DNA of 64,000 nucleotides from Pseudobdellovibrionaceae bacterium (GCA_020635055.1 JACKAN010000001.1:153266-217265); one strand, 5' to 3'. Positions 1,071 through 18,861 are shown, numbered from the stretch's first letter. Numbers and translations: made by a program. Notes: generated from the letters alone by a model not told the origin.

Positions 1071-1979
1071 TTATTTTGCTACTTCTGAAAAATATTCTTC
1101 TTGGTCATTATTTTGTAAATAATTGTAAATAATTAAGCCAACTCCACTTCCTAAACCTAAGATACTTATTCCCGGTATTAATTTATAACGAATACCTTTT
1201 CCTAGTTGAGAGCTTTTTGACCATTCAACAATGTTAGTAGCAGTTGTTCTAATAAAACCTGGATTTTGGCTTATTGGATTACCGGATAAATTATTAAGTT
1301 TCCAATCTTTTTTCATTATTTTATTCATATAAGGGGAAAGGGCAAGGCTGCTCATGCCACCGAGTATTATTGATGCGGACATTGCAGTAAAGCCTTCGCC
1401 TAACAAGCCATCATAAGATATAGGGTTTAAACCTGTTAGTGCTAAATGACATCCACTTGCAAACATTCCTCCTCGCACTAAGCCTTGGGTAGTTAACTTT
1501 GATGTTTTATTTAATTTTCTCCAAAACCAATGTCCCTCTTTTGTAGGAATAGGACCTCCAAAAAACCATGAATCTGAACTTCTAATAACTAGTCCTAGTA
1601 TTGCGCCACCCAGAAGTGTTGTACCAAAAGTATTAAAAGTATTTGTTCCCTCATGGTCAACAAGTTCCGACTTGAATTCTGAAATATTATCATTTGATAC
1701 TCCAACCCAACTCATCATATCCCATATATAACCTTGTTCTATGGTGTTTTCATTTTCCTTGGTTTTCTTATGTAAAGAAATATTTTTATTTACTATTGTT
1801 TTTTGAAGTTGATTAACTTGTTTTACTTTTTTAGTCGCTTGCTCTGGTTTGTCTTCATTACTTGTCGTTGTCGTATCGTAATCCCGGGTTCCACAAGCAA
1901 AAACCAAACAACACATCAATGTATATAGCACAAAAAACAACCATTTTTTACAAATATTTAAAATAGAATTCATAATCAC
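1071..1979 (-). CDS. Putative lipoprotein/membrane protein, last gene of the T4SS-like cluster; function unknown
   Basis: 302-aa ORF with a signal sequence and possible lipobox (LVFAC|GT) and Gly-rich hydrophobic segments. Its start overlaps the upstream stop by 4 nt (ATGA). Confidence 0.55.
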   Translation of the reverse strand: MIMNSILNICKKWLFFVLYTLMCCLVFACGTRDYDTTTTSNEDKPEQATKKVKQVNQLQKTIVNKNISLHKKTKENENTIEQGYIWDMMSWVGVSNDNISEFKSELVDHEGTNTFNTFGTTLLGGAILGLVIRSSDSWFFGGPIPTKEGHWFWRKLNKTSKLTTQGLVRGGMFASGCHLALTGLNPISYDGLLGEGFTAMSASIILGGMSSLALSPYMNKIMKKDWKLNNLSGNPISQNPGFIRTTATNIVEWSKSSQLGKGIRYKLIPGISILGLGSGVGLIIYNYLQNNDQEEYFSEVAK

Positions 1980-2587
1980 TTTTCCTCTGGTTCAATAAAA
2001 AACTGTGGATTTTGTGAACGGGTAACAAAACTACCAGGTTTTATTATTTCCCATATATATCTTTCAGAAATCACTTGCATTTCAGCACGCTCTGGCAATA
2101 AGTATCGTTTTCTAAAATATGGGTATACCCATTTTGTATTGTCATCTAATGATATGGCTAATTTACCTATTTGATTTTTTTGAATTTGCAATATTGACCC
2201 ATTTTTCTCGGGATATAGTTTTAACTGATTAGCTAATTCTAGTGAAGTCTCTTCTGGGTCACAAAGTCGATAACGAGAAAAACGTCCTGATAACTCAACT
2301 TTAGCTTCCTCAATTTCTTGATAGTGCCAGGATAAGAAGCCTCCAGTTAACAATGCAAAAACTATAGAACTTATTATGGTGTTTTTAGATTCATATTGTT
2401 TGTTTTCACCATGGTGTACAAATTGATATCCTACAGCAGCACCTACAGCTGATCCAGCTAGCATGCCAACACCTATTTTTTTTCCATTTGTGGAGCATCC
2501 AATTTGTATAATAAGTAAGAGGGCAATACTTACGAAAGATAATTTATTTATAAAATAAAATATTAATCTAAAATTAAATATGTTCAT
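1976..2587 (-). CDS. Putative lipoprotein with glycine-zipper segment (possible VirB7-type accessory component)
   Basis: 203-aa ORF with a hydrophobic N-terminus ending IQIGC|ST, a glycine zipper (GVGMLAGSAVGAAVGY) and 4-nt overlaps with both neighbours. Confidence 0.5.
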   Translation of the reverse strand: MNIFNFRLIFYFINKLSFVSIALLLIIQIGCSTNGKKIGVGMLAGSAVGAAVGYQFVHHGENKQYESKNTIISSIVFALLTGGFLSWHYQEIEEAKVELSGRFSRYRLCDPEETSLELANQLKLYPEKNGSILQIQKNQIGKLAISLDDNTKWVYPYFRKRYLLPERAEMQVISERYIWEIIKPGSFVTRSQNPQFFIEPEEK

Positions 2588-3561
2588 TGTGTGTCCCTTT
2601 GTACTAGTTCATATTTTTGAGTTAAAGCAACAAAGATGGGCTCTCCAGCCGGAACTACCACATATTCCACTGCCCGTTCGCGAATATCTTTTAATATGTC
2701 ATCTGCAATTTGGAAAGAGGCCGTACTGAGCCCAGATAATACTTGGTTGCTTAAACTGACTTCTACTTGGGAACCAAAAACATTGGGTTCTCGAACACGC
2801 GCACTATCTGCAAATCCACTCAGAAATCCAAATGCAAGTGCTGTACCGTAGTTTTGTAAGTCATCTGAAAAATAGAGACCATCAATTTCAGGCATAGCAT
2901 TGCGCGAAAGGGCTAATCCACTTATTGTTGTTTCAATTCCATCTGGAAGAACCAATTTATCAAACTCAACAATAACTCCTTTTAGAATAGGATTTAAACG
3001 AGATCTACCAATTAATCTTGATCCTTTGGGTATTCGTCTTTTCAAATCCATTCTAAACTCATGAGTGGTTTCTGCCATCACAAATGTTTTCTCAAGAGAA
3101 GTTTTGATAGGTGTAATTAGACGCGCTTGGAATACGGCCCCAGTAGGAATGTAAGCACTTTTTGTTTTTATATTTATGTCTAAGAATCCAGTACCTGGAT
3201 CAAAGCTGATAATACGTGGAGTATGTGTTGTTTTCTTTGCTAAATGTGCTTTCTTACTGATCGATTTATAAACTTTATTAGGCGGTGATTTAACATTATT
3301 TAAAGAGTTTAATTTTCTTACACGATTCAACTCTTCTTCCATTTTTTTAGTTTCTAGTTGTAATTTTAAAATATCAGCTAGTGCCGTCACATCATTTTTG
3401 TGCGCAATTTTATTTTTCTTTAAAGAAACAAACAGCAAAGTTCCAGCTGTTATCGCTAAAATTATTGTTAGTACTCCTAATATAATACGTGTGAGCTTTT
3501 TCTTTTGTAAACTCCAAGTTGGTGTGTCTTTAGTTTCTTTCAATAATTCTTCTAAACTCAT
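2584..3561 (-). CDS. VirB10/TrbI-family T4SS protein
   Basis: N-terminal TM helix, coiled region, then a C-terminal region (TGAVFQARLITPIKTS...IPKGSRLIGRSR...VEFDKLVLPDGIETTISGLALS...IDGLY...YGTALAFGFLSGF) matching the TrbI/VirB10 beta-barrel consensus. I prefer the ATG at 3561, which overlaps the upstream TGA as ATGA, over the TTG at 3570. Confidence 0.75.
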   Translation of the reverse strand: MSLEELLKETKDTPTWSLQKKKLTRIILGVLTIILAITAGTLLFVSLKKNKIAHKNDVTALADILKLQLETKKMEEELNRVRKLNSLNNVKSPPNKVYKSISKKAHLAKKTTHTPRIISFDPGTGFLDINIKTKSAYIPTGAVFQARLITPIKTSLEKTFVMAETTHEFRMDLKRRIPKGSRLIGRSRLNPILKGVIVEFDKLVLPDGIETTISGLALSRNAMPEIDGLYFSDDLQNYGTALAFGFLSGFADSARVREPNVFGSQVEVSLSNQVLSGLSTASFQIADDILKDIRERAVEYVVVPAGEPIFVALTQKYELVQRDTQ

Positions 3562-4004
3562 AAGCCACAATCCTTATTAAATATTTGTGTCACCTTCAAA
3601 ATATTGTCAGCCTGTTTTTTAACTACAAATCGCAATTCGAATAATAGTTGATTATTATTCTCAAAAAATACAAAAAGATTAGTTCTGAAACTGTTATCTA
3701 GTGCAGAGGCTAGGGGTTTTGGTGCAAGCAATATACTTTTTGAATCTTTAAACATATCTAATTCAGTGCTATCAATATAAGGAATGATTGCAAGACTTCG
3801 AGGGGAGAGTGGATTGGTACTAATTTTAAAATGTTTTTTGTCTGCAAAAAGAGTTACTTTAGGCGCTTGTTCTAAGACAATTTGTGTAGTCATACCAATT
3901 CCTAAATTCACCCTAATGACATCACAAGAACTACTAGACACTCGCCTTACACCCGTGTCGGCATTTGCAATGTGGAATAAGAAAATTATTAAATAGTAAA
4001 TCAA
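3558..4004 (-). CDS. Short VirB9/TrbG (CagX)-like N-terminal-domain protein
   Basis: 148 aa with a signal peptide. The pattern VIRVNLGIGMTTQIVLEQAPKVTLFADKKHFKIS...SLAIIP...TNLFVFFENNNQLLFELRF resembles the VirB9 N-terminal domain. The protein is only about half the usual VirB9 length. Confidence 0.4.
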   Translation of the reverse strand: MIYYLIIFLFHIANADTGVRRVSSSSCDVIRVNLGIGMTTQIVLEQAPKVTLFADKKHFKISTNPLSPRSLAIIPYIDSTELDMFKDSKSILLAPKPLASALDNSFRTNLFVFFENNNQLLFELRFVVKKQADNILKVTQIFNKDCGL

Positions 4005-4023
4005 TTTATTTTTCCATTAAATT

Positions 4024-5106
4024 CTAGTCTTTGAGTTTTTCTAGTTTTGCTTTTTTTAAATTGTCTATGAAATTGTAATTTTTCCCATTTGCATGGGGTG
4101 CTTGGTATTGTATATTCTTGTCAATTGTTTGATCTTGATACTGGCTTTTGTATTCTAGTAATTTATGTTCAAGTTCAGCTTTTTCACTCATTAGATCTAA
4201 AGTTTCATGTTGATGTTTATATCTTTTTCTAAATTCTTCAGCTGTTAAAATTCTATGCCTCCAAATGTTCATTTTTTCAGGAGATACTGTCTTACCTAAA
4301 GCTGATAGACCCAGAGTACTTACTTTACCAACAGCTCCTAAAGCCAACATTTGTCCCATCCATCTAAATCCTGGTGGATAAATTGAACTGCCCAAATGAT
4401 TTCCAAACTTTCTGGTGATAGCAGGAACAAAAAGTATCATAATTCCTAAAATCAAAGAAAGAAAATAAAAATTTGCTTTTGGTTGAGCGGGAAAGGGTTC
4501 ACCACTAACTATGTCTGGCATTATAAAAGCAACAAGAATAGCCAATGTAGTTTGCCATAAAAATAATAGAGTCAGCTCTTTTATTATTTCCAGAAAGGCA
4601 TCAATTTCATCAAATAGTATTCCTTTTGCTAGAATAAATGGTCCTATAACCGCAAAGAAGAAAAAATACACAAGATAAAAAGAATAAATGATCCAATAAG
4701 AAATATCTGGTAGCAATCTTGCTAGCCCCTCAGCAGACCAAGCTACAATATTACTTATTGAACCTAAGCTTGGAAAGCCAAAGCCTTTCCATTGTATTTG
4801 AAAAATATCATATATAATAAAAGTATTAAAAGTATCTATCAAATCCTTTAAACCTAAAATCAGAAAAGGCCAAATTACTACAAGAGTAATAATTATTGGT
4901 AAATTCCATAATTTTTTTACAAGATTAGCATTCTCAAAACGTTTGAGGGTCATAATTCCAATGGAAATGACTAACATTAAAATCATTAATAAATAGGTGG
5001 GTTGTATGAGCTTTGGCACGAAGACTTCAAACCAATTCGAACGCAAACCAAACACGTTAGAAGTGATTGGAAATACATCAACAAATTGGACATTTATATA
5101 ATTCAT
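4024..5106 (-). CDS. VirB6/TrbL-like polytopic inner-membrane T4SS protein
   Basis: 360 aa with about 6-7 predicted TM helices and a charged coiled C-terminal tail. It occupies the position after the VirB5/TrbJ-like gene, as in trb operons. Confidence 0.5.
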   Translation of the reverse strand: MNYINVQFVDVFPITSNVFGLRSNWFEVFVPKLIQPTYLLMILMLVISIGIMTLKRFENANLVKKLWNLPIIITLVVIWPFLILGLKDLIDTFNTFIIYDIFQIQWKGFGFPSLGSISNIVAWSAEGLARLLPDISYWIIYSFYLVYFFFFAVIGPFILAKGILFDEIDAFLEIIKELTLLFLWQTTLAILVAFIMPDIVSGEPFPAQPKANFYFLSLILGIMILFVPAITRKFGNHLGSSIYPPGFRWMGQMLALGAVGKVSTLGLSALGKTVSPEKMNIWRHRILTAEEFRKRYKHQHETLDLMSEKAELEHKLLEYKSQYQDQTIDKNIQYQAPHANGKNYNFIDNLKKAKLEKLKD

Positions 5107-5792
5107 TTTTGATTATGCCTTTTTTGCTTTTGATTTAAAATTTCGGCACCCATCACTAGAGTATTTAAATTACTTTGTTGATTTTCATTTTTACGTAGGA
5201 TTCGTAATTCTTCACGCATGGCATGAATAGTAGCTAGCAATTCTGTCATCTGAATGGAAACCCTAGTGTTTGTCTGCCAATTCCCTATCAGTACTTGAGC
5301 TTCTAACTTTGGAATGAGACCAGGTGGCGCCACAATTAATTCTTTTTGTAATGCTTTTCTTTGTTTAAAATCTGACTCGTTGGCTTGAACGCTTTTTTTT
5401 TGAAATTTTATAGCATCTACAAAAATATCATTTTTAGATTTATCACTGGCGGTCTCATTTTTATTTCTTGGTAGATTTTTTCTTAATTCTTGTGCATCAG
5501 AGTAATTATTTTTAAAATCATCTTTCAATTGTAATTCTAATAGAGCCTTTTCATAAGTATCAGTCCCCTGATATTTTTCAATCGTTTTATCAATTCCTTC
5601 ACTCAAGTTTTTTAGAATATGACTGGCACTATTTAGTGATGCCGTGTCTTGTTTTGAATATTTAAGAATTTCTCTTAATGCTTTAATTTGTTGTTCAGAG
5701 TTATTAATTAATTGTCTTAACTGTAAAGTATCTGTTGAAATAGGCATTTGTGCAAATGCCTGCAAGGAGATTGTTATTATCAGTATAATCAT
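5103..5792 (-). CDS. VirB5/TrbJ-like secreted coiled-coil protein
   Basis: 229 aa with a signal peptide (LQAFA|QM) and a helical, Q/K/E-rich sequence. It lies between the VirB4 and VirB6 homologues, as TrbJ does. The call rests on size, position and composition only. Confidence 0.4.
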   Translation of the reverse strand: MIILIITISLQAFAQMPISTDTLQLRQLINNSEQQIKALREILKYSKQDTASLNSASHILKNLSEGIDKTIEKYQGTDTYEKALLELQLKDDFKNNYSDAQELRKNLPRNKNETASDKSKNDIFVDAIKFQKKSVQANESDFKQRKALQKELIVAPPGLIPKLEAQVLIGNWQTNTRVSIQMTELLATIHAMREELRILRKNENQQSNLNTLVMGAEILNQKQKRHNQK

Positions 5793-8131
5793 TGTAAGGC
5801 TCCATTTCTAAAAGACACAAAATCTAAAACATTTTTAGAAAAATCGCCTTTAGATTTGCTCATCCAATCCTTGAATACTTGATTGTCTTCTGGCGCAGAA
5901 GTTGCTAGCCAATATTCCATACTACTAGGTACATGACGAATCACGGTGCGCTCGCTGTCACGAATCAAGAATACATCCGAAAAGACACCCTTTTCTCTAC
6001 GAAGAGACTCAATGGCCCACTGGTCCATTTGGCTGAGCGAAAGTATGTGTGAATAATTTTTGGGATTTCCCCTTTGCTGTAAAATAGCTTTAGATTGTGT
6101 GTTTTGTAAAATACTAGAACCTGCCAAACTAGATGTTATTTTTTCTAAATCTTGAACAACTATTACGACGCCAGCAAAATATTTTCTTAATGTTGACACA
6201 AGCTCATCAACAAAGAGAGGTTGTGTTTTAAGTAAAGAAAAGGCGACTTCATCTAAAACTATCCAAGAAAATTGATTATTTTTGACCTGTCTAATTCTTG
6301 CCCATAAACTGGCACAAATAATGAGTTGAACAACACGGGACAGATCTTCAAATTCAGTTAATCCTTTTAAGTCAAATGTGAGTATAGTTTCTTTATTTTT
6401 AATTACTTTATTGTTGTCTAAAAACTGTGCGTAAAAACTATTACTTCCCCATGGTTTTAGATGTAAAATTAATGTTTGTGTTGCCTTACTAGGAACTTTA
6501 GATACAATATCAATCAAGCTTGTAATTGGATGCTCAGGAAGTTGATCTTGGTTTAACAACTTATCAAGACAGTTAGACAAAAGATGTCTAACTTCAATCG
6601 GAGGCAAGTTTCCATCCATTCTAGTCATTTCTAAGAAAATTTGGAAAATATGTTGCCTTCGCATTCTTTCTTCTTTTGGGTCTTCACTTTTAGAAAGAAA
6701 AAAAGGACTCAATTCGAAGCCTTGTCCAGGTTCTAGACTCATCACCTGTCCACCAAGAAACTGTGTTAATTTATTGTATGAACCTCCAATATCAACTATA
6801 AAAATCTGTGGATCAATGGAGATGCTTTGTGCAAGTAGTGAGTTAACAAAAAAACTTTTACCAGAGCCACTTGTTCCACTTACCAGCCAATTGTAATTGG
6901 CCAAGCGAGAGTCAACAGGGTCGATTCCATACAAATTGGTATTTCTGCTTTGGAAAGTGACCACCTGCCTCCTATCGCCTCTAGATGGACGAAAAAAGGG
7001 TAAAAAATGAATTGCATTCGACGCCAATACAGTGTGAGTGCTGATATTTTTTCCTGTAAAGCTGGGTATGCACTCCAAATAAGAATCATATGTACCAAGT
7101 GTACATTCAACAAACTCACAAAAATCCATTTGAGAGGCAGATCTTAAAACGTCAGCTAATGCTTTTCTATGAAAGGAAGCTAATTTTTTTGGAAATCGTA
7201 AACCAACAGTCATTTTCATTTCAAAAATAGATTCTGATTTATCAGCAAGACTACGCAACACTTGATCTATTTGGTCCATTTGACTTTCAACTACTGGTGA
7301 AGGGGAATTCTTACTGGTTTTTTGAGCATTTAAAAGATTTCTTTTTCGTTCTAATTGGGAAATTATAGGGTTTGCTTCCCTAGAAAATAAACGAACGCAC
7401 ACATCCATAGGATAAGGCAGCTGTGTTATTGATTGGATCATTCCTAATTCGGTAAAAGACTCTGGTAATTTATTAAGTTCTAGAGAACGGAATATATCAT
7501 CATTAACAAATAATTGACCTGCTTCAATTTTTATTGACGGCCATTCAGGAGTTTGTAGCTCCGATGAATTAAGATCTTGAGTACTAATATTTATTTCCCG
7601 CTCAATTTTAACCTTATCTAAACAATTGACTTGGAATCCGAAGGCACTCAATTGCGCAATAAACAATTGCCTTTTTTCTTCTAAATCTTCACTTTCAAGA
7701 AGGTCTTTTGTCCAATAACAAATTATTATTTTTTGTGATAACAATTGGGGTTCTTCTTTGCTCATTTGTGAGACTTGATCGGCCAATTGATCTAATAGAA
7801 TTTTTCTGCCATAAGAATTATTTGATAGAAAAGCTTGGCTTAGCTGATCCTCTACCCATTTTGAAAATTCAACCCTTTTCCTGTAGATGATTTGCATTTC
7901 TTCACCGGTGGGCAGACGTAACACAGATCTCCAATCATTATGGAGAGTTTCTGCCTGTTCAGGTGACAAGAAAGATCCATCTAAGCCTTCTACTTCAAAT
8001 ATAAAACCAAATCTATTTTTGGTTTTAAGAATGCCGGACTCACTCACTTCTGTTACATCCCAGAAATCACTTAATATAAAGGATTTTTTACTCTTTTTAC
8101 TTTTCATTATGAAGTTGAAAAAGTTTTTCAT
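5789..8131 (-). CDS. virB4: VirB4/TrbE-family T4SS ATPase
   Basis: 780 aa. Walker A is LVSGTSGSGKSFFVN and Walker B is WIVLDEVAFSL. Size and domain order are typical of VirB4/TraC/TrbE. Confidence 0.85.
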   Translation of the reverse strand: MKNFFNFIMKSKKSKKSFILSDFWDVTEVSESGILKTKNRFGFIFEVEGLDGSFLSPEQAETLHNDWRSVLRLPTGEEMQIIYRKRVEFSKWVEDQLSQAFLSNNSYGRKILLDQLADQVSQMSKEEPQLLSQKIIICYWTKDLLESEDLEEKRQLFIAQLSAFGFQVNCLDKVKIEREINISTQDLNSSELQTPEWPSIKIEAGQLFVNDDIFRSLELNKLPESFTELGMIQSITQLPYPMDVCVRLFSREANPIISQLERKRNLLNAQKTSKNSPSPVVESQMDQIDQVLRSLADKSESIFEMKMTVGLRFPKKLASFHRKALADVLRSASQMDFCEFVECTLGTYDSYLECIPSFTGKNISTHTVLASNAIHFLPFFRPSRGDRRQVVTFQSRNTNLYGIDPVDSRLANYNWLVSGTSGSGKSFFVNSLLAQSISIDPQIFIVDIGGSYNKLTQFLGGQVMSLEPGQGFELSPFFLSKSEDPKEERMRRQHIFQIFLEMTRMDGNLPPIEVRHLLSNCLDKLLNQDQLPEHPITSLIDIVSKVPSKATQTLILHLKPWGSNSFYAQFLDNNKVIKNKETILTFDLKGLTEFEDLSRVVQLIICASLWARIRQVKNNQFSWIVLDEVAFSLLKTQPLFVDELVSTLRKYFAGVVIVVQDLEKITSSLAGSSILQNTQSKAILQQRGNPKNYSHILSLSQMDQWAIESLRREKGVFSDVFLIRDSERTVIRHVPSSMEYWLATSAPEDNQVFKDWMSKSKGDFSKNVLDFVSFRNGALQ

Positions 8132-8412
8132 GAGATCTTTCCGAGAATAAGAAGTTTAGCATTAAGCTGACTAGGCAAGAATAAAAATCTAATAAAACGT
8201 TGAATAAAGTAGTTACCTAATGATCTCCTGATCCAAAAAAGAACAAGCGCAAAAATTATGGTAATTAAAAGAACTAAAAATCGATTGATCTCTAAAAAAT
8301 AACCTATCTCTCCGCCACCGACAAAAATAAAACAAAATAGTGTTAATTCAAAAAGATTAAAGCTAAGAATTTGAAAAGGTTTGTCTAGATTCCTATATAC
8401 AATACTACGCAT
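8128..8412 (-). CDS. VirB3/TrbD-like small membrane protein
   Basis: 94 aa with two TM helices, located immediately upstream of virB4 with a 4-nt overlap. This is the canonical VirB3 position and size. Confidence 0.5.
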   Translation of the reverse strand: MRSIVYRNLDKPFQILSFNLFELTLFCFIFVGGGEIGYFLEINRFLVLLITIIFALVLFWIRRSLGNYFIQRFIRFLFLPSQLNAKLLILGKIS

Positions 8413-8458
8413 TTATTCCTTTTGAGTTTCTTTTTCAATTAGTTTTGCTTTAATAATA

Positions 8459-8749
8459 TTAATTAAAAAAATTAATAATCATGTATGCTGAGTTAACAAC
8501 AACAAGACCGACGATGCCATATATCAATCTAGAAACTCCAGAGCCTTCGCCCTTAGCAATTAAAAATCCTGACCATGCAACAAAGCCAACAATTAGAATG
8601 TTAATGATTCTTACTAAATTAGAAATAGTAACATTAATGCGTCCTTCGAGACCACTTTGTGCAAATGCTTCAAATGAAAAGCAAAAGAAAATAAAACCTA
8701 GTACAAAAATTGAAAAACATAAGGAAAAATATTTAAATTTATTATTCAT
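8459..8749 (-). CDS. VirB2/TrbC-like pilin precursor
   Basis: 96 aa. A long signal peptide (cleavage about AFA|QS) is followed by two hydrophobic helices separated by a small charged loop (KGEGSG). It is the first gene of the cluster. Confidence 0.5.
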   Translation of the reverse strand: MNNKFKYFSLCFSIFVLGFIFFCFSFEAFAQSGLEGRINVTISNLVRIINILIVGFVAWSGFLIAKGEGSGVSRLIYGIVGLVVVNSAYMIINFFN

Positions 8750-8755
8750 ACTTGC

Positions 8756-8783
8756 GTTATACCCCTGATCAAAAAACTGTCAA
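8756..8783 (-). promoter_or_regulatory. Putative sigma70-type promoter of the T4SS cluster (TTGACA-16 nt-TATAAC)
   Basis: The minus strand reads cTTGACAgttttttgatcaggggTATAACgcaagtATG. The -10 element ends 6 nt before the pilin ATG, and no Shine-Dalgarno sequence is present. Confidence 0.3.
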
Positions 8784-9014
8784 GATTAGCTCTTGGCTAG
8801 AAGTGGTTCAAAAGATATGATTTTTCTTTAAGAGTGTTTTCATATGTCATATGTACGAATCAAGAATAGCTTTATTAAGATTTCTACAATTTAAATAAAA
8901 AATAAAACTACAATATTTTTAAGTATATTTGTTTTTCAATTATAAATTATTCTTAAAATAAAAACTGCAATTTTTAACTTTAATAGTTTCTATATCTGAA
9001 AGATGGGACTACAA

Positions 9015-18778: not shown

Positions 18779-18861
18779 GAAAAAGGCTCCTGTTATAAAA
18801 AACTTTACCCATATTAACACCACCACTTGCTTTTGAATAGGGCGAGAATTATGAATTTCCT

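Follow-up and report, generated by a model that had tools for sequence, protein, structure and literature searches.

A conserved VirB4-only type IV secretion cassette of uncultured Bdellovibrionota, probably a domesticated mating-pair-formation module

Relation to described secretion systems

Only a handful of type IV secretion systems (T4SSs) work without a coupling protein, namely Ptl, Brucella VirB, ComB and Trw, and of these only ComB works on VirB4 alone; how coupling-protein-less machines move anything is an open question (PMC12857230). Here we describe a nine-gene T4SS cluster at positions 1071-8749 of a 64,000-nucleotide stretch of DNA, hereafter the window, from a Pseudobdellovibrionaceae bacterium (GCA_020635055.1 JACKAN010000001.1:153266-217265, or G000:C1:153266-217265 in our numbering). 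The host assembly, G000, is 3.0 Mb in 35 contigs with a completeness of 72%. The T4SS family to which the cluster belongs is known to date from uncultured Bdellovibrionota alone. We suggest, with a probability of roughly 0.7, that it is a domesticated mating-pair-formation (MPF) module of this family, a conjugation machine that has been re-used at the cell surface. Judged from gene content and conservation, it appears to be the MPF half of a lineage-specific family of conjugative elements, kept under purifying selection without genes for a substrate receptor, DNA processing or integration. We call this coupling-free chromosomal form type B, and the sister form, found on elements resembling integrative and conjugative elements (ICEs), type A. 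A literature search found no paper on a T4SS of this kind in Bdellovibrionota.

The ComB system of Helicobacter pylori resembles the cluster in being chromosomal, in having VirB4 as its sole ATPase, in lacking VirD4, VirB11 and a relaxase, and in comprising a pilin, VirB3, a VirB6-like protein and VirB10 (PMC12857230). It differs in having VirB8 and a full-length VirB9 and no VirB5, whereas the cluster has no VirB8, only the N-terminal domain (NTD) of VirB9, a gene in the VirB5 position and two unrelated lipoproteins. Beyond membership of the T4SS superfamily, the sequences show no significant relationship. The shared ATPase make-up, VirB4 without VirD4 and VirB11 (PMC12857230), together with a weak ComB10 match (E=0.0013), could point to ComB-like DNA uptake, in which a VirB4-driven pseudopilus would pull external (prey) DNA into the periplasm and hand it to ComEC-type proteins. 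Against this stand the opposite pattern of VirB8, VirB9 and VirB5, the 18 bits scored with the ComB10 model NF038092 (cut-off 300) and a VirB4 that is nearest to F-type TraC and not to ComB4. We therefore consider such uptake rather unlikely.

The Trw system of Bartonella is likewise derived from conjugation and lacks a type IV coupling protein, and it has been proposed to form a pilus without translocation (PMC12857230). In Trw the pilin and VirB5 genes occur as tandem variable copies, whereas the window and the orthologous loci that were examined have one copy of each, and the pilin of the cluster, unlike the variable Trw pilins, is among its better conserved proteins. A further difference is that Trw retains a VirB11 homologue.

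F-type systems (MPF_F) share with the cluster the absence of VirB11 and the type of VirB4, for which TraC is the best model and TraC/TrhC are the nearest plasmid proteins. The 148-amino acid (aa) VirB9-like protein resembles TraK (Foldseek E ~1e-4), and the order VirB9-like protein, VirB10, lipoprotein matches the order traK-traB-traV of F. However, plasmid TraC proteins are only 21-24% identical to the VirB4 of the cluster, which scores 200 bits against a family cut-off of 567. The F-specific proteins TraU, TraN, TraW, TraH, TraF and TraG are matched by none of the nine cluster genes and, since all nine are accounted for, their genes are not present in the cluster. The initial annotation had described the system as Trb/VirB-like, with a trb-like gene order. 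The first five genes do follow an order resembling Trb, but the affinity to Trb did not hold, as VirB4 scores only 41 bits with the TrbE model (cut-off 1020). Other features of VirB/Trb systems (MPF_T) are also missing: no VirB11 was seen, there is no PF04335 match and VirB9 is represented by its NTD only.

The chromosomal T4SSs of Patescibacteria offer an ecological parallel, as their hosts live on other bacteria, most of the clusters lack a relaxase and a non-conjugative function has been proposed (PMC12102498). These systems are monoderm and MPF_FATA-related, and VirD4 homologues are common in the genomes that encode them (PMC12102498), whereas the cluster described here is of diderm type, with VirB9 and VirB10, and has no coupling protein.

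The family adds an independent case of a coupling-protein-less T4SS. The machine is unusually small, without VirB8, VirB11 or the C-terminal domain of VirB9, and its hosts live by attacking other bacteria. Its mobile sister lineage differs mainly by an ATPase gene inside the operon, mobility and further genes after it, and a sigma-54 regulatory module upstream. This pairing makes two questions directly testable, namely what a T4SS needs when it has no substrate receptor and by which route conjugation machines are domesticated.

The nine genes of the cassette

The cluster consists of nine minus-strand open reading frames (ORFs) read from 8749 to 1071, with products of 96, 94, 780, 229, 360, 148, 328, 203 and 302 aa in the ORF listing. 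All frames are open, in agreement with the initial annotation of nine co-directional intact genes. The six 4-nt overlaps that it listed are also present; read on the minus strand, five are ATGA (8128-8131, 5789-5792, 5103-5106, 3558-3561 and 2584-2587) and the sixth is GTGA (1976-1979). The two remaining joints are gaps of 19 nt (4005-4023) and 46 nt (8413-8458). The G+C content, approximately 33%, is the same as in the remainder of the window.

The 780-aa protein (5789-8131) is the sole ATPase of the cluster and, on its profile matches, certainly a VirB4. It matches PF19044 with 104 bits and TIGR00929 (VirB4_CagE) with 120 bits, and its best NCBIfam model is the F-type TraC model TIGR02746; all these scores are far under the curated cut-offs. 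Walker A (GTSGSGKS) lies at residue 419 and Walker B (IVLDE) at residue 624. Among the 68 full-length members of the family, Walker A is kept in all and Walker B in 65, and 114 columns of their alignment are at least 97% identical. Two relatives have unusual forms of the protein. In G314 (L046 10022-12363) two overlapping ORFs encode VirB4, with the break at residue 691, and in G462 (L050 10001-12997) the protein is fused in frame with the following 229-aa protein to give 998 aa.

The first gene (8459-8749) encodes a VirB2/TrbC-type pilin of 96 aa with a signal peptide and two hydrophobic helices. It narrowly passes the cut-off of Pfam PF04956 TrbC (28.2 bits against 27.9), a family that its orthologues also match. 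The pilin and its orthologue from the same genus share 72% of residues in the best-aligned segment and 65% when compared along their full length. Next to it, 8128-8412 encodes a 94-aa protein with two transmembrane (TM) segments, whose gene overlaps virB4 and lies directly upstream of it in all loci examined. From this position and topology we predict a VirB3/TraL-like protein; matches to TraL (two of 12 members, E=0.033) and to PrgI are below threshold.

The ORF at 5103-5792 encodes an exported helical protein of 229 aa with a hydrophobic, signal-peptide-like N-terminus. Type A and type B loci alike encode it, and it gave no match in Pfam and PDB profile searches; its position suggests a VirB5/TrbJ role. 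The following gene (4024-5106) encodes a polytopic membrane protein of 360 aa with about five TM segments and a charged C-terminal tail rich in Lys, Glu and Gln, and its counterpart in the ICE-type relatives is two separate genes. No significant Pfam or PDB match was found for it, the nearest being TrbL_3 with one of 12 members (E=0.16) and DUF2976 with two of 12 (E=0.005). Position and topology are consistent with a VirB6/TrbL role.

Sequence profiles gave only a marginal VirB9 match for the 148-aa protein (3558-4004; TIGR02781, E=0.008), which has two Cys residues that are invariant in the orthologue alignment. With 16 orthologues as input, AlphaFold2 gave a model of pLDDT 89.2, and the top nine Foldseek matches of this model are all VirB9-class chains of T4SSs. 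These matches comprise the NTD of TrwF from R388 (E=4.4e-8), VirB9 of Xanthomonas citri, CagX, DotH and TraK of F/pED208. According to the model, the protein is the NTD of VirB9 alone, without the C-terminal O-layer domain.

The bitopic VirB10/TrbI protein (2584-3561) matches PF03743 TrbI with 57.7 bits over profile positions 1-184 of 188 and has a single TM segment at residues 24-52. Because its orthologues start with MSL, we place its start at the ATG at 3561, giving 325 aa, and not at the TTG at 3570 called by the automatic ORF listing. VirB4 with intact Walker motifs and a core of pilin, VirB10 and VirB9 identify the cluster as a T4SS.

The last two genes encode lipoprotein-like proteins. 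The 203-aa protein (1976-2587) is specific to the family and common to type A and type B loci. In brief, it has a lipobox Cys (Cys31, nearly invariant in the alignment), a helical hairpin and a small C-terminal beta domain. No solved fold was matched by its AlphaFold2 model (pLDDT 74), and a search of 1.84 billion representative proteins yielded only 26 matching clusters. The 302-aa lipoprotein (1071-1979) is specific to type B and unrelated to the gene at the equivalent position in type A relatives. An invariant CGT(R/Q)DY anchor motif directly follows its lipobox and the body is divergent; homologues from the two type B clades share only the signal and lipobox-CGTRDY segment (hhalign probability 93%). 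Most type B loci with a readable cassette end carry this gene. It is missing in two loci, G228 and G314, where the complete cassette could be checked.

Conservation, absent partner genes and the mobile sister form

The same eight or nine genes occur in the same order in 14 type B loci. These comprise the window, G001 (same genus), G341, G324, G376 and G314 (same family), G034 and G228 (other families of the order), G462, G467, G392 and G435 (other families of the phylum) and two metagenome contigs. Wherever annotated, the neighbours differ between loci and are all ordinary chromosomal genes, elsewhere including dnaG-rpoD/ferritin/DivIVA, pyrophosphatase, Na+/H+ antiporter, prolyl oligopeptidase, Ku/LigD and MutS genes, among others. 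Within the order, ten of 384 genomes have the VirB4 of the cassette, and a sample of 401 genomes from the phylum contains 12 that do. In 185,579 species-representative genomes, an alignment-based query returned 14 carriers, all metagenome-assembled genomes (MAGs) named Bdellovibrionales, Pseudobdellovibrionaceae, Bacteriovoracaceae, Oligoflexia or similar; a single-sequence pattern query returned no matches. Identity is out of step with taxonomy, being 61% to a genome of the same genus and 70% to one of another genus, which suggests that the cassette is occasionally transferred. Comparison with the same-genus genome G002 as a possible empty site showed no synteny of the flanks, and a search on both sides of the cassette gave no att-like repeats.

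Synonymous sites are saturated between orthologous cassettes (dS above 1.5 or not computable, dN 0.2-0.6), so that dN/dS cannot be quantified. Across type B loci the frames are nevertheless open, apart from the split VirB4 of G314. The initial annotation had left open a decaying conjugative element, and a remnant in which lesions have not yet accumulated might account for the lack of a coupling ATPase, integrase and relaxase, for the split VirB4 and for the two loci without the last gene. This we regard as next to negligible: open frames at such divergence and the kept Walker motifs leave neutral decay unsupported, translational coupling is preserved, and type B has a lipoprotein gene of its own.

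The initial annotation had also stated that VirD4, VirB11, VirB8, a relaxase and an integrase are absent from the window. This holds for the cluster and for the ten annotated neighbours, to approximately position 18800; the remaining window was not scanned for these families. No coupling protein of the VirD4/TraG/TraD or TcpA/FtsK type is linked to the cluster, and neither a relaxase nor integrase or replication genes accompany it among the ordinary chromosomal genes of the annotated flanks. The genome-wide profile search that the initial annotation had recommended found, with the profiles used, no VirD4/TraG-type coupling protein, VirB8 or relaxase in G000, which has a single VirB4. For coupling proteins there was no PF02534 or PF12696 match and the PF10412 matches were at the level of the P-loop only; no homologue of the type A ATPase described below was found. 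PF04335 gave no match and there was no VirB8 candidate. The relaxase families searched, PF03432, PF08751 and PF03389, which are not all that exist, gave no match. PF07514 was matched below threshold only, and the same match occurs in G002, which lacks the cassette.

With regard to VirB11, all T2SSE-family ATPases of G000 scored high, as did their orthologues in the two further genomes that were searched, and none had the look of a VirB11 in a comparison that did not take in each one individually. One candidate, the smallest of them with 310 aa and encoded on contig C33, was rejected. Its gene overlaps a 435-aa ORF with a C-terminus that is secretin-like by eye, and the two (G000:C33:96247-98464) form a compact pair resembling Tad/Cpa.

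The near-complete carriers G341 (97%), G376 (99%) and G228 (98%) have no coupling ATPase of the VirD4/TraG type, the type A type or the FtsK type; the search for the last matched just the FtsK of approximately 800 aa itself. It should be noted that an ordinary split conjugative system, with VirD4, VirB11 and relaxase in the unassembled 28% of G000, would fit the completeness of 72% and the frequent distance of coupling-protein genes from virB4 (PMC12102498). We find this very improbable, as the same lack is seen in the near-complete carriers and as the gene for the ICE-type ATPase is part of the operon, where it separates virB10 from the lipoprotein gene, two genes that overlap by ATGA here.

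The sole candidate coupling ATPase in G000 is an unlinked FtsK/SpoIIIE-type protein of 476 aa with two TM segments (G000:C33:120635-122065). It lies beside gcvT-gcvH in a group (G000:C33:117718-122065) that also encodes a large serine recombinase (582 aa) and a 288-aa protein. Homologues in relatives, 38-45% identical, are located 4-5 kb from other, distant VirB4 genes. The ATPase therefore has the look of a coupling ATPase from another T4SS family, left behind in a small element, integrative or mobilisable, that has no T4SS of its own. The 288-aa protein was compared with a 358-aa protein of type A loci, and a kinship was unsupported (hhalign probability 7%). The C33 element, and TraG/TraD-type coupling proteins elsewhere in the genomes of G001, G324 and G314, raise the question whether the cassette provides a shared channel and pilus, with coupling ATPases and DNA-processing proteins supplied in trans by mobilisable elements or ICEs, so that DNA would still be transferred. 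We consider this improbable. The three near-complete carriers keep the cassette without a coupling ATPase of the three kinds searched, and the ATPases in question belong to T4SS families with VirB4 proteins only 25-31% identical. Such use is possible in G000, not in general.

The initial annotation had called for a VirB4 phylogeny and a comparison with relatives, and these revealed both the recurrence of the coupling-free form and an ICE-borne sister clade. A database search gave 71 VirB4 clusters of the family at 40-100% identity. Beyond these, the next nearest proteins are TraC-like (25-33% identical), and the best plasmid matches are the TraC/TrhC proteins mentioned above. The VirB4 tree contains three strongly supported clades (Shimodaira-Hasegawa-like approximate likelihood ratio test, SH-aLRT, 99-100). 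The clade of the window and a second clade have the coupling-free chromosomal form at every locus sampled. Monophyly of these two type B clades is not rejected by the approximately unbiased test (p-AU 0.53), and hence one loss or one gain suffices.

We sampled seven type A loci (L048/49, L053, L055, L056, L057/L060, L059 and L062). All seven carry the same core genes and, between virB10 and the homologue of the 203-aa lipoprotein gene, a gene for an ATPase of approximately 500 aa; in the window, virB10 and the 203-aa gene overlap by ATGA at this very point. The ATPase has an N-terminal hydrophobic region with two TM segments, as read from the sequence, and a P-loop. It matches DUF87/HerA and AAA_10, and a PDB profile search gave FtsK, TcpA, TrwB and DotL around the P-loop. 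We regard it as a putative coupling protein. Four or five further conserved genes follow the core, with an HTH_17 excisionase-like gene in most loci. A tyrosine integrase, usually preceded by the excisionase-like gene, ends six of the seven loci; the seventh is on a short contig. No recognisable relaxase was found in the type A loci. Upstream of the cassette, the five loci with called-gene annotation have a divergent sigma-54 activator and a histidine kinase, and four of them a binding-protein module. At L056 a sigma-54-like site, TGGCAC-N5-ATGCT, lies 46 nt before the pilin gene. Taken together, the type A loci appear to represent an undescribed ICE-like element family in Bdellovibrionota. 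Type B lacks the ATPase, the extra genes and the integrase of type A and has its own variable lipoprotein instead.

Possible functions, regulation and flanks

From the gene content we infer that VirB4 would assemble an envelope-spanning core of VirB10, the VirB9 NTD and the lipoproteins, and would also build a VirB2 pilus or pseudopilus. There is no cytoplasmic substrate receptor, and the cassette itself would therefore not conjugate on its own. By analogy with the VirD4-less Ptl, Brucella VirB, ComB and Trw systems (PMC12857230), it most likely acts from the periplasm or the cell surface. Candidate roles are pilus-mediated contact or adhesion, DNA uptake resembling that of ComB, and two-step export or display of the lipoprotein encoded in the operon itself, the variable type B lipoprotein being a candidate partner or cargo. 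The initial annotation had proposed a VirB4-only minimal secretion or pilus machine, and this is supported by a cassette that stays conserved and open at saturated dS and by the absence of coupling genes from near-complete carriers.

A more far-reaching and tentative possibility is that predatory Bdellovibrionota turned the ICE apparatus into a VirB4-only, coupling-free machine acting in the interaction between predator and prey, where it might mediate contact with prey, take up prey DNA, or display or export the variable lipoprotein. If true, this would make it a T4SS of a new functional class, with the ICE-borne sister clade as a natural evolutionary control.

Several points weigh against domestication of a conjugation machine. 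The tree leaves the direction of change open, between loss and gain of the ATPase and integrase block. Every carrier of the cassette is an uncultured MAG, and G000 is only 72% complete. The C33 ATPase could act in trans for the cassette. Neither a VirB8-like protein nor a VirB9 C-terminal domain was found in the system. Finally, of the roles given to the genes in the initial annotation, B2, B4 and B10 are backed by profile matches and B9 by fold, for its NTD, whereas B3, B5 and B6 lack a significant profile match.

A candidate sigma-70-like promoter (TTGACA, 16 nt, TATAAC) can be read from the sequence at 8756-8783 on the minus strand, ending 6 nt before the pilin ATG. A similar motif is present in just three of 13 type B loci, and the sigma-54 motif in one of five type A loci in the search for shared promoters; as this is weak evidence, we do not infer a mode of regulation from it. 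Four copies of ATTG(T/C)AG lie in the AT-rich stretch upstream of the pilin gene (8750-9014), and a fifth lies downstream of the last gene, at approximately 925-935.

The ten annotated neighbours encode an M16 peptidase, DUF2914, CBS, DksA-like, ATP-grasp, MATCAP-like, GGDEF and DUF6531 proteins, a subtilase and a methyltransferase. On the downstream side, where the initial annotation had placed an IS630 remnant and a peptidase gene, the peptidase is the C-terminus of the M16 protein (2-577) and the IS630 remnant could not be confirmed. No ORF was found in 578-1070, and an Rfam search of the window gave no matches. A dispersed repeat of approximately 130 nt at 729-861 has about ten further matches in the genome and the look of a miniature inverted-repeat transposable element; its copies include an inverted pair 1.3 kb apart (C3:31016-32563).

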